Assembly: GCA_030704615.1 (NCBI GenBank)
Contig: CM060732.1
Location: 52,204,001-52,268,000, forward strand
DNA: 64,000 bases
Reading direction: 5' to 3'
From: Takakia lepidozioides
Taxonomy: Eukaryota; Plantae; Bryophyta
The notes under the pieces were generated by a model, which searched no databases, was not told the DNA's origin, and saw nothing but the letters and a program-made list of their open reading frames with translations. Positions 1 through 55,937 of this stretch are shown here, one piece after another. Both the position numbers and the translations under genes were made by a program. The number at the start of each line of letters is the position of its first letter. Positions within the stretch are counted from its first letter, which is position 1.

Positions 1-1430
1 TATGAATTCATTCAAAACAGTATCTTCCCTGGCCAGGACTCGTCCAAGGTGTATTTGTTCAAGATGTCCACAATGGGCGAAGGCAGTGATGTGAGCATAG
101 TCCGCCGAATGCAACCTGGAGGAGATTTGGCTAAATGTTGGTTAATGTTTGATCACTGCAAACGGGTGAAGGGTTGGACAACCATGGCGTGCCATGTGTA
201 CGATCTAGCGTACCAGCGTGTGCTCTCCATAGCAATTTGTGATATGCAGTCCGAGGACACTGAATCCCAGATGCTCATGTGGAATTCGCTCCTAGCCGTC
301 ATGCAGCGCAATGGAATGCAGAACACAAATTTTGTGGGCTTCATGGCTGATAGTGCATAGGCAAATTTCAATGCAGTGCGGCACGTGTTTGGATTAGGGG
401 ATCCTAAGGTCCTAATGGAAAATAGGGAGTGCACATGCCTCTTCCATTGGGGTCAATCTCTGGCACGTCATACAAAGTGATGCATTCACCCTGACCCCCA
501 GTTGGAGCACAGAAGGCTCTGCCTCAAGTACAAAAATGCCACCTCAATGGGAGAAGCTGAGAGCACTTACAAAGCAATCCGGGCTTGGTGATTCTCCTCT
601 GGTGCTGCTACTGGTATCCACCTGAAGGAGTTGGAGGACTGGTTGGTTTTCTGGCACTTAAGGTACAAACAGTGGGGAGCTTTCATGACGACGGTAAACC
701 TCTTCAATCCTAGAAACATAAATTTCACTTTGCATCGTGCCTGTTCGTTTGGGGTTGTTGGGGAACCTTTTTCATTTCCTTTCGTTCCTCACATTTGCAT
801 GCAATGCCTCCTGCATGACATGTCCTTGGAGGACTTGGCCGACATGCCATCCTGTAATTTGGCGGAGACTGTTCACAACGCGTGGATGTAGCAGTCTACC
901 AAAGCAGGACGTGACTTGTATGTGGCCACTGTTGATGACATGGTGCGGGCACTTACACAACAAACCAGATACCGCAATTTTCTGATGGGACGGGGCGGAG
1001 GCAAGGGCCCTGATACAACTTTGTTGATGCTAAGGGCTGCGAGTAGGTCCGGAGACCCATCGAAGATAGCTAGAGCTCTGAACAGGTGCACTGAAGGCTC
1101 CCCTTTGCAATCCAGGGTCCCCCATTTGGAAGGCGAGGAAAGATTTGGATCATGCAAAAGGAAATTGAACACTCCTCCAGGGTCGGATGGAGATTCCCAT
1201 CGGCCGAACAGGGTCAATTTCTCTGTACCAAAGGTGTCTTCGGTGCAGACTAAGTCGTGTGCCCGCCCCTTCCCAAGTGGGTCCTCTTCCAGTGGAGCAG
1301 GTGCAGATCATGCAAGCACATCAGCAGGAATCCCATTGGAGGAGGTGGTGTCCTTGGTGCATGAATCTGATTGCATTGACAGTGAGTGGCATATAGAACG
1401 CACCCCACCAAGATCTAGAGTGGCTTGCAA
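1..1430 (+). mobile_element. Mutator-like (MULE-type DDE) transposase pseudogene, runs off the window start
   Basis: Reading through stops gives WLMFDHCKRVKGWTTMACHVYD...FMADSA*ANFNAVR...CTCLFHW (D, D and CxxH motifs), then CNLAETVHNAW (third acidic residue). In-frame stop at 358 and several more downstream. Confidence 0.7.
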
Positions 1431-1560
1431 CGACGCAATGGCGTGAGCCTTGCGCGTGAGTGCGCGAGCGTACGCTCACGCAGGAGTGACGTGGCGTGAG
1501 CGTGATATAAGCAGGCTGATGTGGCACTGCGCCGTCATCTGCCACATCAGCATGAACATG
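1430..1560. repeat. GC-rich GCGTGAGC repeats, palindrome and hairpin (probable transposon subterminal region)
   Basis: Near-palindrome gcgcgagcgtacgctcacgc at 1462-1481. Perfect 12-bp stem gctgatgtggca (1515-1526) / tgccacatcagc (1540-1551). Confidence 0.6.
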
Positions 1561-2059
1561 CGCCGCCTATAACCGAGGATGGTCCTATGACCGTGGGAAT
1601 AATGAAGGGAATCCTTGGCTGAATACAATCAAGACTACCATGAGGCCTACAATTGCAGCATCAACATTGTGCAATTATAAATGTTTGTTTCACTTTTATA
1701 ATTACAAGGGTTTGAAAATATCCTCACAAAGTGTGCGCCATAGAGGCTGCAACGGGAAGACCTTGCTCCCTCCCCAAATAACAATGAGAGTTAGGATCAT
1801 CTTCAAAAGATGGTTGCAATGCATAGCGACAGGAAGACATGTAGACTTCGAACGGTGCAACGATGAATGTGCTTTTAAAAGTTGCCACTCAGAGCTCACT
1901 CAGTATAGTTGGAAGGATAATGGAGGGATAAGGGACGCCATATCATTGCACCGCCGATGATGTTGCAAACGAATTGATTTGAATTGAATTTCCATGACAA
2001 TGTTGCAAATTGCACATTTCATAGCATGATCGTCCACATACCACATGGCATAGTTGATG

Positions 2060-2490
2060 CTACCTATGTGTTGTATCCCGCTGCAATAGAATATCGACCT
2101 CGTTGAAACTCAAAGTGGCCTGGTGAACGAAGTTGTCACGTTTGGGATCGCAAACCATCCTCTTCAAAAATATGAAATACAAATGTTTGCAGGGTATGAA
2201 TTTACCTCTCTTGCCCAAACTGGTTGATAGCATATTCACAAAATCAGGACATGTGCAATTGGGAAAATTGGAAACCGTGATGTCGTAGGCCCTGTTATGA
2301 ACAACAGATGTCGAAGTAATCATTGTGTACACCCGACCATATCCTGGATCGGGCACTTCCGTGGTGCTTGCAACACGAGCTTGGAGCATTCTTGCGGACT
2401 CCACTTTGCTGAAGTGTTCAGCGGTTGGAGGGAAACGCCGAATCAGCTTTCCATCTCGCCACCAGGCTCACGCCGAGGCATCCCTTAGTG
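2060..2490 (-). mobile_element. SWIM zinc-finger C-terminus of a Mutator-like transposase paralog, inverted
   Basis: FPNCTCPDF...IPCKHLYFIF matches the CxC-xn-CxH SWIM finger. Clearly homologous to the 2900-3090 (+) peptide. Confidence 0.75.
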
Positions 2491-2509
2491 GCTTGCATGG
2501 CAATTTGGA

Positions 2510-3090
2510 CCCCCTCTTTCAAGAAATGCAAATCAAAAATATGCAAAGGCTCCAGGGGGACTCCAAGGTTGTTCCGACCTTATCATAGTGGGGAGTCAAA
2601 GGAATACAAGTTCTGGTTCTGCCCAGACGATATGGCACGATACGTCAACGGAATAGTTCGTCCTTCGGTGATAATGAAGCCCCATCCCCCCGCAATTTGG
2701 CCTATAAAACTTGGGACGTCGATGTCATCAACCGAGATAAGCATGCTGGAGGAGGGATGGTTCCGTCTTGCACGGTCCCGGGTGGTGCCCTCATGCACTG
2801 TGGGCACAGATGTGCCACATGCTCCGGCAATGCCTCCACCCGGTGCCGACTCCCACCCAACAAAAAGAGATGGAAAAACAGTGCGCTGTGTCGCTTCGGG
2901 TGCAGATCACGACTGCAAGATGGAATCGACTAGAATTTTGCAGGCTCGGGTGACTCGTATCACCGAAGTCCCTGCCCCAGGGTATGGACAGATTTACACA
3001 GTGTTGTCTATTGGCTCAGTTCTTCATGGCAAAGAATATCAGGTTACCGTGGGGAATTTCCCTACGTGCACTTGTCCGGATTATCTTTGA
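2510..3090 (+). mobile_element. C-terminal part of Mutator-like transposase with truncated SWIM finger
   Basis: KKCKSKIC...FWFCPDD...MESTRILQARVTRITEVPAPGYG...GNFPTCTCPDYL*. Probably continues the gene at 1-1430. Confidence 0.65.
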
Positions 3091-4243
3091 ACACATACGA
3101 GCCATGCCCGCTTCCCATGCTGGTTTCCAGATTATCGTGTGAAGACTTTGCATTTAGGACAAACACATACATTTCGTTCACGGAACCAGGGCAAATGCAC
3201 ATGCCATTCATTGTAAGCGTCTATCTGTGAATTGAAATAAAGTGTGTCAATCATTCTGAGCTCAAATCTGCCATATTTTCATATTCATCTTTTTGTGCAG
3301 GCATTGCAGACATGGTGCATGGTGGCCCCCTTTGTTTTGTCCACGGTAATAGGCCCTCTTCCTGCAATCCTCGCCTATAGGACCTGCTTCTCCAGCAGAT
3401 TTGTGCCACTCACGCTTTGCAGCTACAATGTGAGCTCAGCTCCCAGGCTCACGGGGCTGGGCTCATGCCGTAGCTACGCTGGTTACGGAAGCTCAGGTAG
3501 TCCAATTCTGGTACGGGATATTGGATGAGGAGCTGAGGAGAAGGGTGCGGGATGCAACTCTCCTACAAGCGGCCCAACCCACCTTAGCAAATACGTTTTT
3601 GCTGGCAGAGCGAATAGAGCTCAATATGGTGAAGGAACGAGTGGTCATGGTGGGATTTGCTAAGGAGGCACCACGGGGTATTGGTGCTCCTAGCCAGCCA
3701 CTACCTCAACGTGCTCAAGGCAACAAACAGGCTCAGGTGAAGCCCAGGGAAGGACAGAGAGGACCTCAGATGCAGGGGTTTGTCCCTTCATTTGCTGGCC
3801 AACAACGGGCGGATGTGATATGCTGGACATGTGGAGGACCCCATGTCAAGAAGGATTGCCTAGAGGGAGGCAATGGTATGGCACTGGCACAGCCTGCTCA
3901 CTTGCAGTGTGGGCATTGTGGCAAGTACGGGCATGGAGAAGCCCAGTGCTGTGGTTTGCATCCTAAGTTGCGCCCAAGCCAGTTCCAAGGGAACAATGGT
4001 GGCCGGGGGCGAGGTGGAGCAGCCCAGAGAGGACGAGGTGGCCAGGCACGAGGTGCAGGCCAAGGGCAAGCTCAACATGGCCAAGGACGCGGAGGTTAGG
4101 GTGGTGACCAAGGCATGGCCAACCGGCTTCAGCAGCTAGAGCAGAGGCTCGCTGCCATGGCCACAGCTCAGGTGGTACCGGCTCCAAGGCCAGATGGTCC
4201 ACCTCCTGCTCCTGAGGGAGGAGATATGGAAGAAATGGGATTC

Positions 4244-4401
4244 ATGTGTGGGGCAACACTACCATTAATGAGGGGTGCCACTATCACTACCACTATGGGT
4301 GGGGCACCACTACCACTAGTGAGGGGTGCCACTACCATTACCACTGTGGGTGGGGCACCACTACCATTACCACTATGTGCGGGGCAGGACTACCACTAGT
4401 G
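4244..4401 (+). repeat. Imperfect tandem expansion (51-bp and shorter units) inside gag-pol
   Basis: Repeated ggggcaccactacca...gaggggtgccactaccattaccact units. The first atgtgtggggca (4244) and last atgtgcggggca (4375) are 131 bp apart. Confidence 0.85.
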
Positions 4402-5670
4402 CAAGTGGAGTCAGCTACGGCAGTGACTCGAGGAGCAGCACGAGTTCCTAAGCCACGGGGTGCGGAGGTGGAGTTGGATCCACAGCGTGGGGAAGCAAGC
4501 CGTCAGGCCAGGCTTCCTCAATCATTCACATTGGCGAAGACAGTGTCGATGCCATCCATGGCACCTAGTTCTTGCCCGACTGTTACCGAGGCGGAGGTTA
4601 CTATGCCATTAGGAAGAGCTACAAGGGCAACACCACTACCTAGTCTTGCCAAGGCTACGGTAGCTAGTGTGCTGCTGGGGGCGGCCACATCTGTGTGCCA
4701 GGCTCCATTGTTCTCGGCTACCATGATTGCGACGCCGGGGATAAGACCAGCCGAGGTATTTAGGCTGGCAGCTACACTATGTGAGAATAGGGAGGTTACT
4801 TCATCTTCTGCGAAGATAGTGGGAGGTATAGTGCCGGAGGGATCCTCGGATGTGAGGGTCAAGACTGCCACGACAGCTCCATGGCAAGCTGCAGCTGCCA
4901 GGTTGATGGAATTGCCAGCTAGGCCAGCCATTGAGTGCACCATGGTGACACCTGGAGTTATCATGTTAGACAACCAGGATGACATTTTCTGTTTGAGTGG
5001 ACCGGCAGGCAAGAGGTACCGGCCAATGTGAGTCTTGTTGGACTCGGGAGCTCAGCCATTGATGCTGGATAGAGCTGCTATTGCAAGCTTGGGCCTTACG
5101 CAGGCGGATATGGAGCCGTGCCCTTTCCAGATACAAACATCTCTGGGAGGATCAGAGCAGGCTCGGGGCATGACACGGCGTGACTTGACTATCAGACTAA
5201 AGCCGGATCATCCTACATATGGCTCAGTGATGAGAGCCAATGCCATTGTGACAGACGCGGTCTCGTATGATGTCCTTATTGGTGGGGCAGTATTGTACCA
5301 GCTCCCTATGACATTCATAGGAGGACTTGCGGTTGCCCAACGAGGCAAGATGGCGACACTGGCAGCATTCATAGCTGTTGTGACTTGGCCTGGAGAGTTG
5401 TTGGATGACAATACTCATTTAGAGGATGTGTCACCTCCGGGAGAGCACGATGACATGTATAGTATGGCAGAGTTGCCTGCCATGGTTGCTCACATTCCAT
5501 TGTGGGGTTCGAGCAAGGATTTGCAGCGGGTTGCTGATTGGCGGGTGCAACAAGCCTGGCTAGAGGCTTTTGTACCGTCAGGAGAGGAGGACACTGTGGG
5601 GATTGCACCAGGACCACCTCAGTTGTCACCATTGGACACCACACCGATCGTGTGGCAGTGTCCGGATGAA

Positions 5671-6640
5671 GGCATTTGCCTTCTGGACTAGTTTGGCGGG
5701 ATCAGCACCGGGTTGGCTGCTGTTCTATAGGGAGGTGTACGAGTTCGGCGTTACCTATATGTAGAGAGGGATGAGACTGCATGACGTGTCTCACTCCGTC
5801 ATGTTGCTCAGTTGGTGCAACAGTACCCTGAGTTGTTGCCGGTGTTTGCAGTTCGTGGATATCAGCAGGCCTTGCCAGCAGACATTTCGTCGCTGGGGGC
5901 GCAGGATTTGGAGCAGGTTGGCTCCATTGATTTGGTAGTGGCAGGTTGGTCCTGCCAAAGGCATTCATCAGCCGGGCATGGCAATGGATTGCGAGACTCG
6001 AGGTCGGGTCTGTTTTGGGAGATGGTGCGGGTTTTGCGTCACTTACAGCTTCATCAAACTGTATCTCCAACATACATCTTGGAGAATGTGCCACTGATGG
6101 GCGATTCTCGGGCTAGGGTGATGGCCAGTGTGCATCAAGTCCGGTCGTGGCTTGGGTCAGCAGTATTGCTGGATGCAGCTGCAGTGGGGTCACGGGCTCA
6201 TCGTCCACGGTTATGGTGGACTAACTTGATGCCACCCGCACTGTTCAAGTGTGCATTTGATGGGGTGCAGCGGCCAGCATACCTTACAGTGGATAACATT
6301 TTGGACACAAGGAGGCAGTCTCAACGTGTGAGACACGATGACCGTTCGCCTTTGGCAGTGGTCAACAAGGTGGGTCAACCACAAGCAACACTACCTACAC
6401 TACTCAGCTTCCCAGGATCACACGCTTTCCGGGATAGTATACCTGGCCTCCTGTGGGATGCTCAGTTACAGCAGTTAGTGGAGCCTAATGCCGACGAGCG
6501 AGAGCGGGCTATGGGTTTTTCCATTGGGACCACAGCGGTGCCTTCTTTTTCTGAGGCATCACGTCGTCAGGTGTTGGGGCAAGCGATGGATCTCAATTGC
6601 TTGACCTCGATTATCAGCTTGGCTATGGCTGAGCAATGTA
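5671..6640 (+). pseudogene. DNMT3-like C5 cytosine DNA methyltransferase domain (retroelement-encoded)
   Basis: Motif I LLD*FGGISTG, motif II YVERD, DLVVAGWSCQ (motif IV, Cys at 5953), SGLFWE, ILENV (motif VI, 6082), AHRPRLWWTN (motif VIII), ERERAMGF (IX), RRQVLGQAMD (X). Stops at 5689, 5728 and 5782. Confidence 0.88.
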
Positions 6641-6959
6641 GAGTGCGGAGTGCACTTCCTTTGACGGTCTCTCTGCCTACCGAGACGGTACAAGCAGTGA
6701 GTGGGGGCGAGCTGGTGAGGACCACGGGGTGTAGACATCCATGGCCACGTGGGAGGTGCACAAGGTTCAGAGGGAGTTGGCAGCCAAGGCGGCTGTGATG
6801 GATGAGGTTGGGGATTCTTCTCGGGTCGAGGAGGTCCTCAATGATGAGATGATGGGGCAGGATGAAGCATTGTCATTGACTGAGCAGGCAGGGAGTACTG
6901 CTCATGAGGGAGGTTTACTATTTCATGAGCCCATGAGCTCATGAGCCCATGAGCGTGCA

Positions 6960-7176
6960 TCCACGGAATTAGAAATTATCTGCCGTTATTGACGGTAATA
7001 GGGCATATATCCATGGTAATAGGCATTGTTTCTGAACCCCGGGGACGTGGCTAGGACTATTGCGGCGCCGTTATTCACATTTAGGGTTTGGAAAAAGAAT
7101 TAAAAATGGCAGGAGATGGGTTAATCACGGTGCCGTAATACCAGCTTCGTGCTTCTCGAAAAATTTCTTGGTAGTG
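6960..7176. mobile_element. CACTA/EnSpm-type right terminus with subterminal repeats
   Basis: aaaaatttcttggtagtg ends at 7176, and its reverse complement CACTACCAAGAAATTTTT resembles the plant CACTA TIR. Upstream are repeated gccgttatt / acggtaat / gccgtaata motifs. Confidence 0.55.
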
Positions 7177-8438: not shown

Positions 8439-9325
8439 ACTGATATTACTTCACTACAGTAATATAAACATGTCCACTAAAATGTGCTGATGCATGCTTA
8501 CAGCTGTTTTGCTTCAATTCCTTCTACTACTTCGACGGCGGGACGAAGAAGATCCTAATCCTAATGCTCCTATGGGTTAAAAATCCGGGTCACCCTCGAC
8601 TTCACCACCGTTGCCATGATCAGTGCTGGAATCGTCCTCCCTATCCGACCTCATATGTCCAGGCTTTTGAATCTGCAAGTGACCTCGAACCACATTTAGT
8701 TCTCCCTGAGGTCGACTCCCACTCCGGTCTTCAATACCATCCATGGTATCTGGCCTGTTTGTGGGCCGATCGTCTACAAAAGGTTGGATTGTTCTCTGTC
8801 GTTTATGGACTTGGGACGCAATCGAAGGTGGTCTCGAAGGAGGTACCGGAGGGGGGCCTATCCGAGATGGACCGACATTAGATGGTCCGGCATGTGAGGA
8901 ACCACGGGTCTGCTGCGTAATACATCGGTTAAGGTGGAATTGTAGTGGCAGGTTGTCATCATCCGAGGCTTCAACTTCCGCCCGGTTCAATGCAGCAGAA
9001 TGATGCGTGCGTGTGAAAAACAGATCATCCCTGTTGCTCCTTTATTCTCGTTGTGTTGATGGGGAGTTGGATCGGTTTTGGCATTGTGGTGGAGCTGGTC
9101 GTATCGGTGAGGCATGATCCCATCCCGTCGACTGTACAATGGGTTCAATACCATCGTTTGTATGAACATGGTTGCGTACGTCGATCGGTCCTGGCAGTAC
9201 ATCACCCCTAAGCTCTATTGGGGCACTACCGATGGCTTCAGCGTGTGGTGGGGGGCGAGGGTCGACCCCAACTTCATTTTGAGAACCATGTTCTGGGGAT
9301 GACACAATTGCAGCTTCACCTTCAT

Positions 9326-10400
9326 CTACGATACGCACTTCTTCAATAAGGTCATCAAAGGTCGGCTGGATATAAACATCATCCTCTGTGAATGTAAACG
9401 GGTCATACGCATTTTCAGGAGCATCATCGGATCCATCTTCACTATCGGAGGCAGATGATTCCCTTGAGATGATTCTACCTGAGGCTCAGTATTGTCACTC
9501 ATCGAATCAGCCTCAGAAGCAGAGTCTTCGGAATGCAAATTCCTCTTATACCATGCTGCAGCATCATCCGCTGCCCTCTCACGTAGCAGTCGGCAATTGG
9601 TATACACATACATCAATTTGTCAGCCCTCGCGGGATTGAACCTGTTGCAAATCTTGTTGTGAACAAGTGAGTAACTGCTCCAATTGCGTTCGCAAGATGA
9701 GGCAGAGCACACTTGAGCAAGAATACCCTTCGCATTGGGAGCCAATGTTCTTGCTCCAGCTCCAATCAGATGCCACCATTCATGTGGCAACATATTGAGC
9801 TCATGGCGTCTTCTAGCAATCCCATGCGGAGATTATGATAAGTCGAAGGCACGTACGTGGATCTGGACTCCGACGTTGCTCTAACGGCAGAAACAAATGC
9901 CGGAAGCCTTATCACATAAAATGGTATGTTGGCCTCGAAGAAAAACTGCGCCCATTTTTTATCCAACTGTCTTTTCGTAGACACGTTAAGACCTTCCTGC
10001 ATGGATTGCTGCCATAATCCTCTACTCCGTTGTGTAGGGGTACAAAGAGGTGTTGAAGCAGGTGTTGCTCCGGCATAACCCACTTGTCCAAGGACACCCG
10101 AAGCCTCACAAGAGTCGTCCTGGGTATTAATCGAGGCATCCTGACGGAAAAATGAAGTGTTCTGCTCAGATGTCATGTCCAGATCCAAAGACATTGGAAT
10201 ATTTCCTCCACACTGGGCAAAGTGGCTTTTTACCCGCATAGATGCTTTAGGGCATAAACCCACCCCGGCGTTCCTCACACCTTTATAGCCGAGGTGAGTG
10301 AGCAACCGATCCTTACGATAAGAAAGCTTTAACGAATCCCGAACATTGTCAGTGCCACTGGTAGTGTTGATTGCAACCTATGCCTCCTCTTGGGCTACAC
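9326..10400 (-). mobile_element. Internally deleted hAT transposase remnant
   Basis: N-terminal RLLTHLGY..C and LDKKWAQFFFEANIPF..PSTYHNLR region joins directly, near 9795, to the dimerisation domain PHEWW...ILAQVCSASSCERNWSSYSLVH...DKLMYVYTN. The catalytic core is missing. Confidence 0.85.
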
Positions 10401-10597
10401 TCTCGTTCAATGGAAGAGAATATCCAAAGCAACCTCAAGTATTTGCGCCAAAAGAAGTGAGGAGCTTGGTGACCCTCATCCCTTATATATGATCCAAGAG
10501 ATATGAAAGTGAAATGAAAGTGAAATGAATAAATGACGAACCAATAGCGCCCACCCAAAAAAGGCCGTACAACCATATTTGTTGTAATTTTGAAATT

Positions 10598-11570
10598 AAA
10601 CGACCGCTAATACTACGGTCGCTATTTTTATGAAAAACAAGCGACCGCCACTACTGCGGTCGTTTTTATTTCCTTTCATTTTGTGTAATATTGCGTTCAC
10701 TTCTATTTTGTATATTTTTAAATTTAAGCGACCGCCCGTATGGTGGTCGCTATTGTTTTTTATTTCAAAATATAATGCGACTGTCGGTATGGCGGTCGCT
10801 TCATTTGTTAATATATTTAAAATAAAGTGACCGCCAATATGGTGGTCGCTTTTATTTTTAATATTTAAAAAAAAACACGACCGCCAGTAAGGCGGTCGCT
10901 TTTAATCTTTATATTTTCAGGTTTAAGCGACCTCCAGGCTGGCGGTCGCTTAAACTTAATATATATTTTAAAATTGACGCGACCGCCGGTTTGGTGGTCG
11001 CAAATATTGTATTGTTTTAAAACAAGCGACGACCAGTGTGGCGGTCGCTTTTATTTTCATATGTCGCTTGTTTTTTTAATATAATTTTAAATTTACCGAC
11101 CGCCATATGGCGGTCGTTTGTTTTTCTATATATTTTTTAAATTAAGCGACCGCCCAGTGGCGGTCGCTGTTTTTTTTATATTTTTGAAATTATCCGACCG
11201 CCATATGGCGGTCGCTTGTTCTGTACATATTTACAAAATTGTGCGACCGCCAATACGGTAGTCGCTTGTTTTCTTTTTTAATTTAGGCGACCGCCAATGC
11301 GACTGCCAATCTTGTTTTTTTTTAAAAATAAATTGAAATGACTGCCAAGATAGCGCTCGCTATTTGTTTTTTTAATTCGAAAAATAAAGCGACCGCCAGT
11401 GCGACCGCCAATCTTGCTTTAAAAAAATAAAAATTGAAGCGACCGCCAATACGGCGGTCGCTATTTTTTTTTAATTTCGAAAAACAAAGCGACCGCCATA
11501 ATTAGCGGTCGCGTTCATTTTGTTAATTTTCAAAATGTATTTGTCACCGCCACCGTGTCGGCGACGTGAC
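10598..11570. repeat. Array of ~19 palindromic GCGACCGCC-N(3-6)-GGCGGTCGC units separated by A/T-rich spacers
   Basis: Examples: taagcgacctccaggctggcggtcgcttaa (~10924), cgaccgccatatggcggtcg (~11097, ~11195), aagcgaccgccaatacggcggtcgct (~11437). Period is about 50 bp. Confidence 0.95.
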
Positions 11571-13732: not shown

Positions 13733-15362
13733 ATGGCAGGAGCATACACTTGTATTTGTAATCATCTGCCGAGCACGCCTTCAGTGTCTCCTTTCCATTC
13801 CGGTAGACCTAAGGGCAGGCATGGTGTGAAATTGTCTGCAGCTTCTTCGGACAACTGGGGAGTTGTTAAGCGCTGTGGCCGAATTGTGGAACGTATTTTC
13901 GAAGAAAGAGATGGGTTTTGGTGCCTTGCAGAAAGAGATGAAGTGAGGGTTGTGAAGTGTCGGGCGGACAGTGATGATGGCAGCTCAGGGAGAGGCGCAG
14001 GATCTGCCCTTGAAGACCCACCTGGTAGGTTCTCTGTCTAGGGTAATTTCCTATGCAGGATCTATCGTCAGAAGAATATATTCTGTCTCTCTTTGAGGGA
14101 GGCTTTACTCGTTACCTGTTCATTGATGTCAGGGAACGATTTACAGTTGGAAGATCCAGAAAAAGACAGGGTTTTGGAGTTGCCAGAGAATGGGCTATCA
14201 TCATGGCTCTACCCGCCTGCAGAGGAGCTTCCTGACGAGAAAGAGATGACGATATTCGACCATTTGGAAGAACTACGGCAACGGATCCTGGTCTCGGTGG
14301 TGGCAGTGGGGGTGGCCATTTTGGGCTGTTTTGTGTTTGCTAAAGACCTCATTGTGTTGCTGGAAGCTCCGGTCTATTCACTTGGTGTACGGTTCCTCGC
14401 TCTCTCACCTGGGGAATATTTTTTCACTACACTGAAGGTATGCAGCAGTTTTCCTCATTGGTTTGATACACCTTAGAGCATTGACGGCCCTTCTCTTGGT
14501 ATAGGTGAGCTGATTAGTGGAGGTTTGTATTGCATACACACAGGTTTCAGGTTACTGCGGGCTACTGGTGGGAAGCCCAATTATTATATATGAAATTATA
14601 GCGTTCGTTATACCTGGTTTAACGCGGAGTGAGCGACGCTTTCTGGCGCCTATTGTTCTGGGGTCCTCAGTCCTCTTCTACACGGGCCTTGGATTCTCTT
14701 ATGCAGTCCTGACACCAGCAGCTCTCAACTTTTTTGTCTCGTATGCTGAAGGAGTTGTTGAATCGCTTTGGTCAATTGACCAGTACTTCGAGTTTGTGCT
14801 GGTGCTCATGTTCAGTACTGGTCTAGCTTTTCAGGTCAGCCATTCCTACCGCCCAACCAGTCTATTACATAATTGAAAGTTTAACTGGTTACCGTGTGTG
14901 GTTGTTTGCCTGCGACTCTGCGCGGGTGCGCCGCCCGGCTCGCCTGGCAGCTTACCCTGCAGAGTCGCCAGCGGCCTGCCCATTCCCTAATACGTAGTGG
15001 TTCCCAGCATAGGGTATCTGCATTCATAGAGGATCCTGGCATTAGGCTTGTTTAATTTCCATAAGGCTTGAGAAAGAACATGAAGACCTTGATGGCATGG
15101 CTGACTTGGGGTCTGTTGGCTGCTTGACTGACAGGTGCCAGTGATCCAGTTGCTGCTGGGGCAAACCAAGCTGGTTACCGGTGATCAAATGCTCTCTGTG
15201 TGGAGATATGTAGTGGTAGGGGCTGTCATTGCAGCAGCCATTCTGACCCCCTCAACTGATCCCTTAACTCAAGTCCTCTTGGCAGGCCCACTAATTGGCC
15301 TGTATATGGGTGGAGCTGTGCTTGTTAAATTTTTGGATAATGAGTCTCAATTACAAGGATGA
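13733..15362 (+). CDS. TATC: Chloroplast twin-arginine translocase subunit cpTatC. Exons ~13733-14024, 14133-14437, 14544-14834, 15135-15362
   Basis: Transit-peptide-like N-terminus. [61 protein letters not shown] and [13 protein letters not shown] motifs. Canonical GT-AG introns in phase. Confidence 0.96.
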
Positions 15363-20606: not shown

Positions 20607-23345
20607 TCATAGATCTGCTCTAATACTATCAGCAGGGGAAGTGGTGTTGCTGGACCAGTGCTGGTGCACAGAGATGGGAGAAACAGATTGCAATTTGTGG
20701 GCATTGAGACTGTCCAGGTCAGGGGAGGCAGGAAAGTCATCAAGCTCATCGTTGCCAGGATTGGAAGCTAGACTGGCAATCTGAATCAGCTCAAGCTCAT
20801 CAAGCACCTCTAGCATTGGCGGGCGTGTATCCTTGTCCATTGACAAACAGCGAAAAGCCAGTTCAGCAACCCTGTGCACCATACTTCTAACGAGAGGTCT
20901 TTTGTCAGTCTCAAGGTGAGGATCAATGATCTCATCCAAGCAGCCACTTGTAATCTTGATCAGGGCAAGGCAAGCCAGGTTGACTTCCCGTCGATCTCGG
21001 CTGAAGTCCACCACTTTCATTGCCGTAATTATCTCAATAAGAACAACACCAAAACTGTATACGTCGCTCTTGTCTGAGAGATGAAAATACTGGTGGTACT
21101 CAGGGTCTAAGTAGCCCGGTGTGCCTTGAGGACCAGTTGAAATATGAGTGCCCTCTGTGATTGCTGTTCTTGACAATCCGAAGTCAGCCACTTTTGTGTT
21201 GAAGTTGAAGTCCAGCAGAATGTTGCTGGATTTCACATCACGGTGGTAGATAGGTGGGTTTACAGTGGAATGTAGGTAAGCAAGTGCACGAGCTGTTTCA
21301 GTGGCAATGCGTATGCGTGTCTGCCAATCCAAGACTCCTCCCCTCTCGCACTGCAGGTGCTCGGTGAGTGTTCCATTTGGAACATACTCATAGACCAAAA
21401 GGGAGTCCTGTAACTCCAGGCAACAACCTAGGAGCTGCACCAAGTTAGTATGGTTTACTGCTGAGAGTACATTGACTTCATTCACGACCTGCTCAATTCC
21501 TTGATTGCTCCCAGCATTAATTCTCTTGACAGCTACCAGCTGTCCATCTTGCAGCTTTCCTGCATACACTGTTCCAAATGCACCACCCCCTAACTTCTCA
21601 TCAGCGGAAAAGCCCTTGGTCGCTTTCTCCAACTCCTTATAAGAAAACAAGGTAGTTGCTGTAGTCCCTTCCCCAAGTGAGAAAAGGCGAGCCAGTTCTT
21701 TCATTTCACGCCGGCAGTGTCTTGCCTGTTTTCGTTTAATGTGACGCCTCAGTAGCACGGCCAGGCACACGGCTCCCACTAGCAGTGCTCCAGCCGCTAC
21801 CCCTCCTGTGTCAAAGAGGGACACATTCAAGAGTCCACAAACAAAGAGGTTGGAGCTGTATCTGAAATGTTGAATCTCAGACTGACACTGCTAAAGTACT
21901 GACGTGACATATGGTGCGTGGACATGCAAACCAGTAAAGTTGTGACTTCAATAGATAAGTTCAAGCATTATCCAATCACAGGTCCACTCCAGAAAAGGGC
22001 AGAGACTAGGATGAAGTGGAAGAGAACCATCTTCCAGGGTATCTGGGTCCTCACAAAAATGGGCGGGGATAGACTGGTCCTATATGCAGGGAACAATGGT
22101 AGAGGGGAGGCAGAAATATATGTCACAACATGGCTCAAGGTTTGTGTTACAAAGCAGGTGCTATCCATCTGAGGTACATCTTGCAGGCTTTTAAGTTGTA
22201 GAGAAAACTTAGGGGCCGCTTACCTGAGGTCGCCAGCACTCGGGTCACCTTCTTCTTGTGTTGGGGAGGACATAGTCCTCCAATCAAGGGCGTCTGGCAG
22301 GTGCAGTTCGTTGATATAGTGGTATTGCAGTTCGGCAAGACCACTGTGGCTGAGCAATCATCATAGTTGATTAGTGAACTTGAGACAGTGAATCTCTTTC
22401 TACTCAAGCTATGCAAAAGAATTTTAGAGGGGCTACTCTCCCTCTCTCTCTCCTCTTCCATTCATTAGGGTTTTCATTCACATGAGAAGTTTCTTTCTTT
22501 CTCTCGTTCCAAACAAACTCCCGAAAGAAACAGGCAACACCAGATTCCATCACCCTGCACGCCCGCTTCATACCTGGGATGCAGCCGTTCAAGTAACCGT
22601 CTCCTCGAAAGCCATCATTGCATTGGCAAGTGTGGCCTGGACCGTTGATCGCCTGGACGCAGGTGGCATTGTGGGAACACGCTGCTGAGGCTGTGCAGTT
22701 GCCACTCACTACCCAGTTCAACTCCAACCCATAGGTCACTTGCAACTCGTCTTCACTTGTTTGCGAATCGACAACCCAACTAGTAAATGTAGTACACTCA
22801 AGCTCGGAAAGAATTCCACGAGAATCATTTTTCCCCATGTATATGTCACCTTCCTTTAACTTGTAGCAGCAGGTGGCAGGTGTACATGACTGGTTGCCCT
22901 TCCTGCGCTGAGGAAATGGACATAGCAGAGGGCAGGATTTCGTACTGTTGCAGGAGTAGAGAACCAGCGTATTATTGGAGGACACCCAGTAGTTATGGAA
23001 ACCCGTCAAATTGAAGGTTCGAAAGTTTGATTCATTGCACGAGCTGGTTGAAAGTGGGTCGATTGAGATGGTGTTGGATGTGATATTGAGCACCTCGTAA
23101 TTCTTCGAATTCAGAGGAAGAAGAAGCGATTCGTTTCTACACTTGAGTCGAAATTCTGGTAAGCCGCAGCTGGCGTCCAAACCAAAGGGATATGGTAAAA
23201 CCGTTGCTCCACACTTCTTGCAGCTAGAGTCGGTAGCTCCATAGGTTCGCACAGTTGAGATAACAATTACTATACATAGATATAGAAGGATGCCTGCTCC
23301 TCTAATTGAACCAGCTGCAATGTTTCCCGTAGCATGTAGCTTCAT
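20607..23345 (-). CDS. Wall-associated kinase-like receptor kinase (WAKL14-like). Exons ~23345-22574, 22349-22224, 21805-20607
   Basis: Signal peptide, GUB_WAK-type CG..LPYPFG..SCG domain, EGF-like CSHNATC..C.C..GF.GDGY, TM helix. RD kinase with GGGAFG, VAVK, HRDVKSSN, DFGLSR and GTPGYLDPEY. Confidence 0.93.
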
Positions 23346-25292
23346 TGTAGCTAAGTTGCCCTACTTGCAGCCTTCTCTGCTAATATCCTGGTCTGCTATT
23401 TCACCATAATCTCAGCCTCTAGTGGCGATATCTAGTTCCACCTTGTAACCTTGCACAGCGAAAATTCAAAGCAATTTCACATAGTCCACAGTTTGCTGCA
23501 GACACCTGAAAATCTTGACCTCAGGGTCCTCTGACCTTTCCAGCAGAGCTCCACCACATCGCATGAACTACGTCTTGACATGGGTGTCTTAGTCTCCTTG
23601 CGCAATGCGGTTGGTTTCTTTTGCCAAACTTCATCATACTCAATCCAGCTAAGTTACGGCTGAAACCTGTTACCATTCCTATATTGCGCTCTCTCAGCTC
23701 ACTGCTCGAAAGCCGACTACCATACTGCTCCTCTCGAAACAACTGCTCGGATTCCACCTTCAAAAGGCTCATGTCGACTATCCTACTCATTGCCGGCTCG
23801 TCCTCTCATAGGACTCGCCCGAAGACAAAAAAACCCGTGGATCTCCACCAATCCAGTGGTTTCTTCCTCCACCCGAGTCAACTGTGCAACCCAACCCAAT
23901 GAAGGCAACACCACATATACAGAAAACGCTCACAAGACATGCAAGTATCTAGACTCGGAGAGGGAGAAGACACAGAGAAACAAAACTTGGAACGATCCTC
24001 CACCTAGCATAACATTGACCATGCAGCACCGAATGCCTTCAGCGAGTTCATGTCATCCACCCTTACAGTCTACTAACTTACTTCTGAGCTAGAGAACTTG
24101 TCCTGTTGCCTGTTCGGCTCTGCAAAATAACTGGAGTAGTAACAGCTTCAAGTACTGTACCTCAGAGGTCAACATAGCCGAGAAATGGTACTGTACTCGT
24201 CTCGGCAGGAACGTTGAGAGCAGCAATAAATGAAGCACGCGCGAATCTCTGCCCTCAATGCTCCACCCCGCCTTGGGTGCTCTGCCACCTGAGCATCGAC
24301 TACTTGGACCACTTAGCTCTCTCCCTGTCTGCACCCCTCATCAACGATCATCTTCAACACTTCTGACATCCCCACCTCAGCAGCTGCAGCCTGCAAGAGG
24401 ACCCACGGCTACCTGAGGAAGCTTTACCGGGTGCAGTAAAGTGTGGCGACATAGAAGTTATTTATGCCAAGTTGGCTGCTTTCTTGTACTTGCGTGCTCT
24501 TCTCTGAGCGGACCCCGTCGTGTTTGTCCTACCAATAAAGATGCTTCAATGCATGACATTACCTGTATGGAGGTTCTGTTGCAATACCTTTTAATCAACC
24601 TTTCAGACATTGCATGAACACAGAAAAATTGAGTAGAACTACCTCTATAAAGATACCTACTTTGAAGAGTTTGAATCAAAGTTGAACAGCTCTTATAAGT
24701 AATAACAAGGATTCCTGGCATCGCTTAGTGGTGTGGTTGCTTTCTCAAGGGAAGAGAGGCCCATTGTTGTGTGGTCAAAGGTAAAACTGGGAGGCAGTGG
24801 GATGCATTGGAAGCACATGATTCAGCTTGTGAAGCTTGTATACCACAATCTAAATTGTGAGCAAATATGACTAGTGATCATGGAATAGCATTTCGATTAG
24901 ACATGAATTTAAAGTGTTTTGGGCCTGAGGACATGTCCTTAATGCTGCCAATGCAGCCAAACTTTGCAGCCCTTGAAGGCTTTGACTCAAAAGACATAAT
25001 ATCCAAAAGATATGGAGTTTATCATATACTGAACCAATCCAGTAGTCATGTTTAATGACTTCAATTTGCAGGGCTTCACATATGTGTGCGAGAGAGAGAG
25101 TGTTTTCGGTAGCCTTGCGGCTCTAGAGGTACATGTTTGGACATCCCATTATAAAGGGAAGACCAGGCGAAAGAATGAATGAAGAGGAACATATCTAGAT
25201 AACTGATGATAGTCATGGAGTAAGTCAGACAAGCAAGGGGACAATTTATGATTGAGGATTGCCATTTGAGCATGAGGTCATTCTTTTTGTGA

Positions 25293-34900: not shown

Positions 34901-37900
34901 ACAGGGCCGTGTCCAGGTGTTCGAATTTGAGAGACTGATGAAGATGGCACCAGCTGGTTGCACCGAAGCAGAAGTGCTTGATGTGTTGGGTCAGAATGCT
35001 CTCTTGGTCCAAGGCTGCTGGGTGGCTGCAAGTAGCCTTCGGTACGAGCCACCAATGTCTATCATTCGAGATTATATTCTTTTCCTCTTTACAAAACATC
35101 GTGTGATACTCCCTGAACAGCTTGAGGAGCTTCGGGTCCCCAAGGAGGTTTTGAGGGAGATAATGCTCTCTCTTGCTGTCCAGCGCAGGGCCCCTGCTGG
35201 CTGGGAATTCCAGGTATGACCTGCATTGCTATCAGCTTAGGGTTTTGCACTGTATTGGAGGCACTATTTCCTCCTGTAATGCAGCCTTCATGGTCAGGCA
35301 TGAGTTGGGGGTTGTATTCGAGGAGTGGACTGAATCCTCTGTGTCCTGGGGCCATTCCACGACATAATTATTGATACTTATTCTTTCCCGCTTTCTTCTT
35401 ATAATAGGGTGGACTGAATTTGTTCTGTCTCTGGATGATCCAGCTAGAGAAGGTGTAGCCTCCCAATGTCGATCCCTCCTAATGTATTTGCCTGTGTAAA
35501 AATGCAATCCACTAGACAATGTGGGGAGAGGTATGGAGAGAAGTAACCATGAAGACCAGAAAACTTTTGGATATAACTGAAGAATGTACTCCAATGTGAG
35601 AGAGATATAGAATATAGTATTAGACTTTGATTGCAGAGGTGGAACCCTCAACAAGGCAGTTGGTTCGCTCCAGTAGTGGGATGTACCTTTTATCATAGTG
35701 TTCACGGTTTCTGCTGCATTTAAACCGAGTTAGATGCCATTTCTGGGAAGGCAATTCACTGCTTGAGATATCTGTCTGCAGAATTGGGGTATTTCCAAGA
35801 GATTGTACTCATAAGACGTTGTTTGCCGTAGCCTTGTGGCCATTGACCCCGCGCCCAGTTTGAGCGGGAACAAAAGGGACAGAACCTACCTCTGTCAGGG
35901 GTTGACGTTGGTAGTAAGACTTACCTTCATATATAGAATTAATCCGGGTTTTCCAGATATCCTCTAGAAATCCCTTCACACAAGCATCAATCTGCTGTGT
36001 GTGATTTGCCCAAAAACTAGGCCTCAGGAGGGCCTGGGCTTTTGGCTCAGCCTCGAGACTTTCAAAGTTGGTAAACAGGGGTACAGGCACAATTCCCTTG
36101 ATAGATTTGAAGAGAGCGTCACTTTGGTGAGAGAACCCCGGACAGTGTATCAGAAAATGAATACTGTCTTCAGATTGCCCACAACGGGCAATTGCACTCT
36201 CCCTTTCCTCTCTGCTTCTGTTTGCTGTTCAAAGGTAGGCTTCCTGCCCTGAGTTTAAATTTCAGTCTAGTGCCAAGAGTGGGTAGACCCTTGAGGTCAT
36301 CCAAGATGTCCTCCCCCATGTCACTGACTGGAAACAAGTTCAGGGAAGTTTTCTGCCTAATATCATTTTCATCAGACAATCTCATGGCAACAGACATGGC
36401 TTTGGACACTACAGCCTCTAAGTCAGATTTATCCAGCAGGGTCAAGACTTGCGGTTCCAGGTCCAGGTCCTTGAGAATCTCTTCTACTCTCTTCTCCCAG
36501 GACTTAGCCTGTTTGACAGGGCGGTCCTGTTTCCAAGATATAGAGTCGATTAACTTAGGATATCTGGTGTTGGACATATGTTGCAGCTGACCCCACCATC
36601 TGACCTTGAATTCATCTCGTCGGGAGCTTAAGGACGGAATGCCAAACTCACCCCGAACAGCCACATTGGCTGTTTTGGAGCATGCTGACATACACTCCTT
36701 AAGCACCCCACTTGAATGGATTCTAGAGACTTAGCCTGGTTGGAGTTATCAACCCATATTGCAGATCCGTACTCCAAGGCAGGTCTAATAACGCGACAAA
36801 GCATGGTTTTCTTAACCTCAGAGTTGACCCCTCTGCAGTGGAAAAATTTAGTGAGCCCCAGAGCTTTGCCCTTGCCAGTTTGAACAACTTTCCGGATATG
36901 TGCATCCCAATTACAATTGGAGGAAAACTCAACGCCCAGGTAAGTGTAGGAAGGGAGGACCGGGATCTCTTGGCTACCCTTAAGATCACTTCCTCCCTCT
37001 CCTCTGTCGTTGAATGCTACCACTGCACATTTGCTGACATTAGCCTCTAGTCCCCAAAGATCAAAATATCTCTTCGCGCAATCAATGAACTCCTGGAGAT
37101 TGCTTGGAGTCTCCCCTATGCCTGCGAAGTCATCCGCAAACATAAGGGCTGGTATTTCCAAGAGAGAGAGACTGGTAGGGATGCTCCTCTGCAACCAGTG
37201 ATTGACGAGAGTTCATGAATGTTAAGAAGGTAGCAACACATTTACTGTTGAGTCATGGCAATACCATTAAGGAGGTCACCCGGACATATCACCATTGAAG
37301 GTAGTGGATTATACCAGTTACAAATGTGATGTGTTTTCTCCAGATCTGTTAACCAACACCTATTTGAAGTACTATTGGGAGGAATCCTGCAAGGCGTTCT
37401 TGTTCAGAGCTTCTGTCTCTTGTCCCCCCTCCTCCCTACTATGCATTTTGGTACACATTTAGTGCAGCCTTTCCTTAAGAAGAGTCTGATATGAAATTCA
37501 TGCTGGAATGGAATGCTCATACATCTATGCATGAATAATAATGTGCAGGAGTGCGCTGACAAATCATTTATCAAAAAGCATCAAGGAGTGGCGAAAGCTC
37601 AAGCAATCCAGTGGATTGAGTCAGAGGAAGGAATCAAGCAAGCTGTCATGGCTCTCACTCCGTCCAGCCTCGACAGTCCTGTGGACTTGACAACAAATGT
37701 GGGATCTTGGCCTAGTGACAAGGGTGATTCCCTTGCTGCTACTCGTGGCAAAACTCCTCATAATCGGCAGACGGCTGTACCAGCTTTGACAAACAGAACT
37801 GCAAAGGCTCGGGAAGGTAGATTGGGTTCGGTTGCCGATGGTGATCATGATCGTGGGAAAGGAGGTGCAGGTGATATGGAACTTACCGGTCGCATGACGA

Positions 37901-53190: not shown

Positions 53191-55937
53191 ACTCAACAGT
53201 CCAACTCACAATCTCTCCAAGCTCTATACCCACCGTGTTAGATAACTACACCTGTCCTCACATTGATAGCAACCTCTGATTTTGACGACCAGAAGGTTCG
53301 CTCAAAGATAGTGACAGAGCTTTTTACTAACAAGCAGCAGTACAAAGACTTGAAAATGAATGATACAGGAGAACCGACCAGTACTTACAAGATGAAAAAA
53401 CCTTTCAAGCCTGAGTGCTCCTTGCTCCCTACTCAGAAATGAGTCTAAGAGAGTGTACTGACTGTTCATGACTTCTCTTCCTCAAATCAGCAATCTACCA
53501 GGATAGCAAAGCAGCCCATGTGCTAGAAATGCTGGGTTTTGTCTCAGTATCTCTCTGAAAGGGGGCGCCCCTTTTGGTGGCTCTGAGAAGGAGCCATTTC
53601 TAGCTGCCTAAAACCAAACACTGCCCTAACTAACTGTCCTAATGGTTAACCTAATCTGAGCTGACTTCCAACACGCTAAAGACATCTTCTTCATTCATGC
53701 ATATTAACGAAGACATTACCTTTCACACTCTGGCCATTAGGGTGCAAGCAAGCAAGAAATACACCAACTTAGATCCAGCTAATATCATGTCTACAAAAGG
53801 AGGCGAATAACTTTCTCCTCATTCAAAAACCGAAGAGCGCCCTCCTTGGGATATGTGATGGGTGGTCCAGTCTCCCTCATGAAAATCAGAATGAGTGTAG
53901 TAAGAGAGCACCGCATGCAACTAACAGAGAAAGATCAGAAGTCCTTGAGGTCTGCATCTGTGAAAGAGGACCGACTGTCATACTGGAAGTGCCCCGAAAT
54001 GAATCCCCCTCCACCAGGCCCTGCCGCAGACTTCTGCATAGCTGCTTCCAGCTTCTCCACTTGACCATACCCAAACAGGTTTCTTGTACCTGTCAGACCA
54101 CAGTGCCTTGTTTGTAGTCTTCTGCTTGAAATAAGGTCCTCTTGGATTAATCTGCAGCGATTCCAACTTGAATCCTTCAGCTATCTCTGAGAAATGCATA
54201 AGCCCTCCCCTAACTGTAGATGACAATGACACCTTAATGTATAGAGACAAAACCCCAAACCCAGCTACCAGACACTAGTTCCTACCGCTTTGGTGGCAAG
54301 AATTTGTGTGAGGGAAGGAGAGAACAGGTCCTTGCAAGCGTTGGTTAGCCATACCTGTGCAAGACTAATCCCTACTGGTGGCTAACCCTCCCAAGGCTGG
54401 TCTTGGGGTTTCAGCCCAAGGATATGTACAGGGATATGCCCAAAACTGTGATACTCTAGCACAGTTGATGATACAATCGGAATGCAGGAAATTGGGTGTT
54501 GATTTAAGGGCTCACATATGCATCGTGTGGAAAGTACTGCACCTTCATAGGTCGTTGTATAGATGCGCCTGAGCTATCCTGGCTCCACAACGAATGGCAG
54601 AAGGGGAAGTATAGAGAGAGAGAGAGCCAATGGGTGCCATTGTTCACTTATAAGATCATCTCAACACAGCTTGTTATTTGCTTCTGCTGTAGCATACCAG
54701 GCATTCACCATTTTGCCTCGATTGTCCCACCATTGACTGGTGGTTCCAAACCTTCTCGACATTTGAAATTGTCCTTCCAGATATTTGCCTGCAACCCCAG
54801 TAAGCAGTAGCATCATGTCAACGACACTCGGATCCCCCAAACTACCGAACTTACAAAGCCCATACAGAGACAAAAGGGTGCAGACAATTCAATTCCATGC
54901 GTAAACCAGACCTGTGTCTCCGAAAAATAGAACTTGGGACAAATTACTAGCACCGCTACGGGTGTAAGTCTACCGAGTAAGAGTTATACTTCCTTGGTAG
55001 ACAGAGTAATAAGAGAAGCTGCTCCATCCCTTGATTCTTTACAAAGATATAACTCTCTAAAACCTTTTGCGGATAATACGAAGTTCACAGGGCCTGCCCA
55101 CAGTGTTGAATAGGGAGCTTGACAGTGTCTCATGACTGGAAACCGCACCAACAACTGCCATCAGATACAGCAAGAATCATACCACAGGAATCATATCACA
55201 GGTTGGACTTAAACCCTGGCACCATCATACACATTTCCTTTACCCAGAGGCGGAATTTGTTAAACTAGACCAGAAAAGGGCACGGGAAGCAAGAGAGAGC
55301 AGACCGATGCAGTCCAATGTAGAATGGGTGTTGTTTGAGGCTCTCTTCAATCTTATGAAGGCTACTATCGCCACATTCTTGTCGTCAGTTGAAGGGCCAC
55401 GAAACAATGCTCCATGTTGTCACCCTCCTCCACTCTGAATTCCAGGGTGATTTCACACCCCCGCTCACTCCGGTGCTCATCTCAATATACAGAGAATAGA
55501 GAATATAGGAAAATTGGGCAGCTTAATTAAATGAATACCATTTAGTTGGGACAAACGGGCCAATCCCAACCGTTCATCCGTCAGTTTTCGGTATTCAAAT
55601 CCGCTATTTGAATGTGGGGTGTTTTTCCTCCTCTGCCATATCACTGTTTCTTGGTGGAGTAGCCAGAAATTGGACCGATGGCGGAGCTCCGCGGTTTGCG
55701 GAAGTAGACCCAAACGGTCTCTTCGTCTCTCTCGTTACCTTTCCCTCGTACATACAGTCCTGGTCCTGGTCGAGTCATCTTCATAACAGATTCCAAATGT
55801 ACTATCTATAACCTCTCCATTAACAGGGCGAATAACCTTTTTAAACTCTAGTTTTCGACGTATCTACACATAGATGGATTCTCTCTCCACTCATATGGTC
55901 CTAAGACCATCTCTCTCTTTGCTTCAGATCTAAGGTG

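Follow-up and report, generated by a model that had tools for sequence, protein, structure and literature searches.

Why would a retrotransposon in a land plant carry a cytosine methyltransferase of its own? The question is raised by a locus in the bryophyte Takakia lepidozioides, within a stretch of 64,000 nucleotides (nt) of contig CM060732.1 (GCA_030704615.1, positions 52,204,001 to 52,268,000; hereafter the window). A first-pass annotation of its letters had described a dead retrotransposon polyprotein at 3479..6920, with gag, an aspartic protease and a DNMT3-like C5-methyltransferase (DNMT) domain in series. What a retrotransposon gains from such an enzyme has been asked since 2018, in hosts (Symbiodinium and Klebsormidium) that are hard to manipulate. 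We found that the window copy is a dead, doubly truncated gag-protease-DNMT3-like piece, and we regard its membership in a streptophyte family of Ty3/gypsy-DNMT3 elements as virtually certain. The fuller copies of this family place the enzyme in the Gag frame, ahead of a conserved in-frame stop codon.

Searching with the DNMT part returned 63 longer proteins, and the 17 named land-plant proteins among them came from Marchantia polymorpha (15), Calypogeia fissa (1) and Sphagnum fallax (1). Marchantia paleacea, Riccia sorocarpa and Sphagnum troendelagicum joined them through a profile search, among the best 120 of its 349 matches. The window domain shares 72% identity with the liverwort copies (Marchantia and Calypogeia), and the same domain is present in 66 of 80 metagenome loci. 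We refer to these loci as Sphagnum-type because one of them, L001, matches an S. troendelagicum protein at 90% identity and most of the others lie near L001. The protease precedes the DNMT in 36 of the 45 loci with upstream room, so the protease-DNMT junction is not unique to this locus; reverse transcriptase (RT) or RNase H follows it in 52 of the 55 with downstream room. Of the 66 family loci, 18 span gag through integrase in the order typical of Ty3/gypsy, and a PHD finger terminates Pol in 16. The order in the fuller copies (Gag-protease-DNMT-stop-RT-RNase H-integrase-PHD) thus settles the Ty3/gypsy assignment, which the first-pass annotation had left unproven for a copy ending before the RT; no RT, RNase H or integrase sequence was found anywhere in the 64-kb window. 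Among solved structures, the Pol of L002 was closest to Ty3 (E 3e-86), far above retroviral RTs. Pfam scans identified rve (DDE) and H2C2 domains in the integrase and detected no chromodomain in the family elements. In intact relatives, Gag, protease and DNMT form a single open reading frame (ORF1) of 1278-1331 amino acids.

The family is also abundant in the host. We aligned to the window the contigs of a sequencing run containing the host DNA (run X1): 31,978 contigs lay on the stretch, with a summed depth of ~1e5-1e6 over the element compared to 1-2e3 over the right flank, a measure that is no copy number and supports only the description "highly repeated". The same run contributed 1,139 contigs at at least 80% identity to the RT, RNase H and integrase of L002. 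From two further runs, presumed to be RNA, came 52 and 10 contigs, numbers that carry no weight either way on expression. Several of the Marchantia copies (P0493, P0494, P0495 and P0498) are annotated as genes of the male V chromosome (Mp_Vg00370, 00480, 00540 and 00690).

The methyltransferase had been described as DNMT3-like rather than DRM or CMT, and this description held. The family profile matched DNMT3A (E 3e-26) better than DRM2 (E 2e-10) or M.HhaI (E 6e-9), and DNMT3A was also the best solved-structure match in a single-sequence search. The predicted fold of the domain resembles that of DNMT3A: modelled from an alignment, the L001 domain reached a predicted local distance difference test score (pLDDT) of 94, compared to 31 in a single-sequence prediction, and best matched DNMT3A-DNA complexes (template modelling score, 0.73). 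Pfam scans revealed neither the DUF3444 domain of host plant DNMT3 nor the chromodomain and BAH domain of CMT, and the motifs stand in canonical order rather than in the permuted order of DRM. Across 202 domains, the catalytic Cys (99%), the E (99%) and N (95%) of ENV and the two Arg of motif VIII (RxR; 98 and 97%) are conserved; the Pro of motif IV is present in just 57%. Ratios of nonsynonymous to synonymous substitution rates (dN/dS) were 0.08-0.11 between the window and five of six loci, at synonymous sites near saturation, and the sixth pair was saturated. The DNMT is under purifying selection, and the higher ratios between near copies (0.47-0.83) reflect decay after insertion.

A tree of 162 domains (the 202 reduced at 85% identity) with 14 phage and bacterial outgroups gave retrotransposon-borne enzymes as the nearest relatives and split type A (protease-DNMT-RT) from type B (RNase H-DNMT-integrase). 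The RT tree returned the same split with the exception of one row. Type A includes Klebsormidium nitens and Closterium, and type B includes Scenedesmus and Hariotina (names from cluster look-ups). In a careful tree of 45 chosen rows, type A was supported at 100/99 and a 10-row clade of the window, Marchantia, Calypogeia and Sphagnum-type loci at 100/100, with the window copy outside the Marchantia-Calypogeia-L001 subclade. In this tree, L001 lies nearer to Marchantia than Marchantia does to Calypogeia, itself a liverwort, and L002, of a second subfamily, branches further out; the pattern fits either old paralogous lineages or horizontal transfer among bryophytes. The domain therefore groups within a large retrotransposon-borne radiation, in a tree that holds no host DNMT3, DRM or CMT, since the protein searches returned no such sequence; its affinity to DNMT3 rests on the single-sequence, profile and fold matches. 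Among viral contigs, a search with the Marchantia protein P0005 had no match, and a profile search of 13 of 64 parts found just distant phage-type C5 methyltransferases (22-38% identity), with no close viral donor seen.

The first-pass annotation had also placed the methyltransferase between protease and RT. The position was correct, yet the enzyme is not simply a part of Pol, because it ends ORF1 ahead of a conserved in-frame stop. ORF1 terminates 93-97 residues after motif X in intact relatives, and liverwort ORF1s, with 97-99 residues, end at about the same place. We found 51 loci in which RT follows the DNMT, 47 of which could be anchored at the stop. It occupied one and the same codon in 46 (35 TAG and 11 TAA); the remaining locus, L042, reads TAG TAG CCA two codons off. 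The next codon is CAA in 45 of the 47, followed by CCC (41), CCT (2), CTA (2), CCA (1) or CTC (1). In a column control with 7 near-duplicate loci dropped, 43 of 43 copies had a stop at this site, whereas no other among the 572 in-frame columns exceeded 15 of 48. The RT nonetheless continues in frame past the stop, with the frame kept in 41 of 51 loci. At the stop site, 34 contigs of run X1 from other copies in the host run on into TAG CAA CCA. Gene models that join DNMT to RT (P0007, P0016 and P0039; Marchantia and Sphagnum) skip the ORF1 tail and the stop and were not counted as stop-free. Gene models of Closterium (Zygnematophyceae; P0139, P0173, P0114, P0108, P0147 and P0507) show the same Gag-protease-DNMT-RT elements without the stop.

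UAG-CAR-YYA is the readthrough signal of tobacco mosaic virus (TMV), and in-frame stops are also described for the retroelements SIRE1 and Tca2 (PMC2194720; PMC2754532; PMC3159437). The exact CAR-YYA context is present in L002, L039, L040 and the host's own copies. We consider it quite probable that ribosomes occasionally read through UAG-CAA-CCN to make Pol, which would supply DNMT and protease at Gag levels and RT and integrase at a few percent. Three observations count against such readthrough. The main Sphagnum-type family has CAA-CCC rather than CAR-YYA; an ATG lies two codons past the stop in 42 of 47 loci; and a stem-loop 3' of the stop finds little support in covariation (a term of -0.23 kcal/mol), with z below -2 in one of four sequences. 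The first two also feed the alternative that Pol arises from a spliced RNA or from re-initiation, made possible by that AUG, with the DNMT still in the Gag frame. This alternative is unlikely, because L002, L039 and L040 have GTG at the position of the ATG and the host copies have no ATG there, all of them with the exact CAR-YYA context. The preservation of the frame across the stop and the uninterrupted continuation of Closterium and other sister elements also speak against it.

The ends of the element, read in Sphagnum-type loci, are not those of a standard retrotransposon with long terminal repeats (LTRs). The window copy had been called a dead LTR-type element; it is dead and Ty3/gypsy, but the family's ends are A-B-A-B repeats instead of plain LTRs. 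Full copies of ~9.2 kb have the arrangement A-core-B-A-B (A, ~340 nt; B, 115 nt) or A-core-B in place of two identical direct LTRs: B is followed by A in 8 loci, and 7 stop after the first B (some of these are the same insertion). Both forms begin with TGTCA (TATCA in one) and finish with ACA, and a 4-bp target duplication flanks 7 of 7 loci (6 insertions). A 2-nt spacer separates B1 from A2 in 8 of 8 (GC in 5) and forms the palindrome GACAGCTGTC, and a G-rich purine tract lies upstream of B1. Twelve bases after A1 are complementary to bases ~30 nt past a TATA-like box in A, the same pairing of predicted RNA 5' end and site after the repeat that is described in the accessible text for Tf1 and sushi/Tcn1 (PMC7175516; PMC6317226). 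Six of 14 copies, from 4 insertions, matched at 11-12 of the 12 bases, and one in 20,000 shuffles attained 11. Reverse transcription is thus likely self-primed as in Tf1. The 5' RNA fold closes the self-primer duplex, with a z of only -1.7.

The A-core-B-A-B ends are a permuted LTR, gypsy-like in working and structurally atypical, and this suggests integration from a circle. The working LTR could be B-A, with the integrase inserting an end-joined circular complementary DNA (cDNA) at the internal GACA-NN-TGTC junction at the loss of 2 bp; we give this route about even chances. If correct, this mode of integration is one so far undescribed among LTR elements, and the two forms seen after integration likely correspond to circles with two LTRs and with one LTR, opened at the B|A junction. 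Several observations weigh against the self-primer or the circle. The ends come from Sphagnum-type loci and not from this host; the self-primer match is just 6-9 of 12 in 8 of 14 copies; the mirror form A-B-A-core-B, expected of a freely chosen two-LTR circle, was found in none of the 15 5' ends; and A-core-B could arise through recombination between B1 and B2. The A1-B1-A2-B2 layout is that of the split direct repeats of PAT and Ngaro (PMC4157794, as accessible), where it is described for tyrosine-recombinase elements, whereas this family has an rve integrase and 4-bp duplications. No tyrosine recombinase was matched among the proteins scanned. The combination of A-B-A-B ends with a DDE integrase points to an unusual integration route, and LTR finders that look for twin LTRs would miss the family. 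Two loci (L019 and L023, ~6080-6320) carry a rearranged insertion, where the 5' part of the element adjoins an inverted copy of its 3' end, comprising B and neighboring sequence.

How could the enzyme serve the element? As the best, and somewhat favored, explanation for the whole, we propose that an element with a Gag-protease-DNMT3 ORF1 packages its methyltransferase and methylates its own new DNA before integration. The DNMT would be packaged into the particle along with Gag; self-primed reverse transcription would make the cDNA, whose ends would be joined to a circle; the protease would free the DNMT, which would mark the cDNA, most likely at CG; and the new copy would enter the genome already methylated, as camouflage or self-damping. 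The packaging of the DNMT and the later steps, from its release to the entry of a methylated copy, could hold or fail with equal probability. They follow the proposal of de Mendoza et al. (2018) and the activity of SymbioDIRS-Dnmt3, whose domains methylate CG in yeast (PMC5890265, accessible text). On the other side of the balance, the KnitGypsy-Dnmt3 domain gave no methylation in yeast, a result its authors call inconclusive (PMC5890265); the element, with a CpG value of 0.49 compared to 0.33-0.39 in host genes, is not more depleted; and the tree includes no host DNMT3 gene.

A role in the nucleus, where the DNMT would act with the integrase and the PHD finger to methylate the site of insertion or the copy already integrated, and not the particle cDNA, appears improbable. 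The PHD finger that closes Pol in some family loci fits such a role, as do chlorophyte relatives with the DNMT directly before the integrase (RT-RNase H-DNMT-integrase-PHD). The land-plant DNMT, however, lies in ORF1 with Gag, and the stop, RT and RNase H stand between it and the integrase, which favors a bulk role in the particle. Still less likely is that the domain has been retained for some function besides DNA methylation, for example nucleic-acid binding or RNA methylation in the particle. The negative yeast result, the variable motif IV Pro and the absence of excess CpG loss could be read in this way, but conservation of the catalytic Cys, ENV and RxR stands at 95-99%, the predicted fold matches DNMT3A-DNA complexes, and human DNMT3B likewise failed in the same yeast assay. 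Finally, the idea that a single dead retroelement picked up a host DNMT3 gene by chance, suggested by a truncated copy amid other transposon remnants, is refuted by the same setting of the domain in 66 of 80 loci, the same order in Klebsormidium and Closterium proteins, the division of the RT and DNMT trees into the same two types, and an intronless domain without DUF3444.

By sequence, the family DNMT belongs to the lineage of KnitGypsy-Dnmt3, together with the Klebsormidium and Closterium elements. The accessible text of PMC5890265 publishes DNMT-bearing retrotransposons for K. nitens and dinoflagellates, and KnitGypsy-Dnmt3 is likewise a Ty3/gypsy element whose DNMT3-like domain is unpermuted, lacks introns and evolves under purifying selection. 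It also has the DIRS-like A/B repeat layout, noted there without explanation. A K. nitens protein (P0129; zinc knuckle-protease-DNMT), which falls in the same clade as the window family (100/99), is by species and domains probably one of the published elements. The two differ in host (an alga as opposed to land plants) and in arrangement: the authors place the DNMT in one ORF with RT and RNase H, whereas the land-plant family keeps the frame with a conserved stop between. The accessible text makes no mention of a self-primer, a purine tract, a 4-bp duplication or a PHD finger. The survey in that paper included Physcomitrella, and Marchantia and Sphagnum were not found in the supplements searched. 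Later papers say "streptophytes", citing it (PMC12344493, section 5; 10.64898/2026.05.21.726589; accessible parts).

Other known systems are more distant. The chlorophyte gypsy elements (Scenedesmus and Hariotina) share the DNMT lineage (40-42% identity), a Ty3 RT and a C-terminal PHD finger, but have the DNMT between RNase H and integrase and form separate clades in both trees. This chlorophyte radiation (P0057, P0083 and ~80 further proteins) extends DNMT3-bearing gypsy elements beyond streptophytes, and the literature searched held no description of it. SymbioDIRS-Dnmt3 (PMC5890265) and EpiLTRs (10.64898/2026.05.21.726589), as partly accessible, also carry a cytosine methyltransferase, the former with a tyrosine recombinase instead of a DDE integrase and the latter with a DNMT4-related domain accompanied by DAM and a chromodomain. 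Host plant DNMT3 (PpDNMT3a/b; PMC6453930, in part) has the same DNMT3-type catalytic domain in canonical motif order with a C-terminal DUF3444, which is lacking in the family domain inside its polyprotein. SIRE1 and TMV have the same UAG-CAR-YYA-type stop (PMC2194720, accessible text), and the stop in this family differs in lying between DNMT and RT.

The first-pass annotation had considered such elements non-standard in land plants. A literature search that reached a minority of subscription journals returned no land-plant description of them and none of this stop or these ends, and the main text of PMC6317226 does not mention PHD, Marchantia or Sphagnum; the lineage itself is nonetheless known as KnitGypsy-Dnmt3. 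The land-plant form, the conserved stop, the Tf1-like self-primer and the A-core-B-A-B ends with 4-bp duplications thus appear to be features not found in print. Motif-complete ORF1 gene models of the same lineage occur in Marchantia polymorpha, a model with methylation mutants, so the question is directly testable there; the placement of the stop predicts a high ratio of DNMT to RT in the particle. Gene inventories of Marchantia list five DNA methyltransferases and leave out the element-borne ones (PMC5784723). A broader and more doubtful possibility is that a green-plant-wide gypsy lineage kept a DNMT3 enzyme from chlorophytes to bryophytes and that land plants moved it into the Gag frame behind a leaky stop. 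Particles full of methyltransferase would then deliver pre-methylated cDNA, as a self-primed circle opened by a DDE integrase at a palindrome inside the LTR. If this were true, the family, with hundreds of copies or more in the host, could be an unrecognized source of de novo methylation in bryophyte genomes.

In the window itself (Table 1), many contigs of run X1 part from the sequence at 3481 (29 contigs) and 6909 (34 contigs); these loose ends fix the limits of the fragment and refine the earlier span. Alignment of intact relatives (tblastn) indicated that ~185 N-terminal Gag residues are absent. Translated with X at stops, 3383-4501 reads as gag, and linker, protease and an entire C5-methyltransferase domain share a single frame across 4216-6960. 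The frame of Gag differs solely through damage near the 51-nt tandem duplication. The single frame of protease and DNMT, interrupted by point stops at 5029, 5689, 5728 and 5782, agrees with the annotation, as do the two zinc knuckles, the protease motif and the six methyltransferase motifs: motif I (interrupted by the stop at 5689-5691), GWSCQ (5944-5958), ENV (6082-6090), AHRPRLWWTN (6196-6225), ERERAMGF (6496-6519) and LGQAMD (6574-6591). Pfam matched PF00145 (E 8e-10) and, below its cut-off, Asp_protease_2 (E 0.006). The DNMT is damaged in motifs I and IV, the latter reading SC where 17 of 17 other land-plant-clade proteins checked have PC.

Table 1. Coordinates of the retrotransposon fragment, its parts and its flanks in the window.
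Feature	Position	Strand	Basis and remarks
Ty3/gypsy-DNMT3 retrotransposon fragment, dead	3481..6909	+	Loose contig ends; tblastn of intact relatives; without terminal repeats, RT, RNase H and integrase
C-terminal part of gag, two zinc knuckles and RG-rich tract	3482..4255	+	48% identity to Marchantia P0005 residues 188-354
Zinc knuckle 1	3821-3859	+	CX2CX3HX4C, canonical spacing minus one residue
Zinc knuckle 2	3908-3949	+	Motif reading
Stop codon in gag	4097-4099	+	Translation
51-nt tandem duplication, site of frame change	4244..4401	+	Repeat families D6 and D8; frame 2, then 1 (tblastn)
Gag-protease linker, conserved	4402..4944	+	48% to P0005
Aspartic protease	4945..5316	+	Pfam, relatives; stop 5029-5031; DSG 5041-5049; then ~27-codon in-frame deletion
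DNMT3-like C5-methyltransferase domain, motifs I-X in canonical order	5668..6633	+	PF00145; stops 5689, 5728 and 5782; motif IV SC
ORF1 tail, frameshift near 6745	6634..6909	+	Ends 8 bases short of the family's in-frame stop
Left flank, piece of a different repeat	3199..3480	.	Contigs span 3199-3481 and diverge after
Right flank, piece of a different repeat, CATGAGC arrays (D12, D14)	6910..7034	.	Repeat families and contigs

The left and right flanks have one 25-nt motif in common, and a non-autonomous element may have captured the fragment or received it by insertion. CATGAGC/GCTCATG motifs are inverted in the repeat pieces that bracket the fragment. Further out, it sits between Mutator-like (MULE-like) remnants with SWIM fingers and a hAT remnant. 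The former are degenerate transposases (1-3090), with SWIM fingers on the minus (2060-2467) as well as the plus strand (2413-3090). The latter is a degenerate transposase on the minus strand (8577-11500; Dimer_Tnp_hAT) with ~15 subterminal hairpin repeats, GCGACCGCC...GGCGGTCGC, at 10589-11500. Host genes in the rest of the window include an intron-containing TatC gene (14042-14876) and a WAKL14-like kinase (20607-23360). The best 120 of 989 matches to this kinase included no named moss or liverwort; a quick tree joined it at 100 to two other sequences, apart from the named ferns, lycophytes and seed plants, which by elimination suggests a bryophyte. A second receptor-like kinase (47259-48437), an intronless 957-amino acid PPR protein ending in DYW (50332-53205) and a broken PPR copy (61466-62858) were read from the sequence. 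Fragments on the minus strand at 35809-37212, judged by eye, resemble the RT of a non-LTR retrotransposon (long interspersed nuclear element, LINE) and include an FADD motif.

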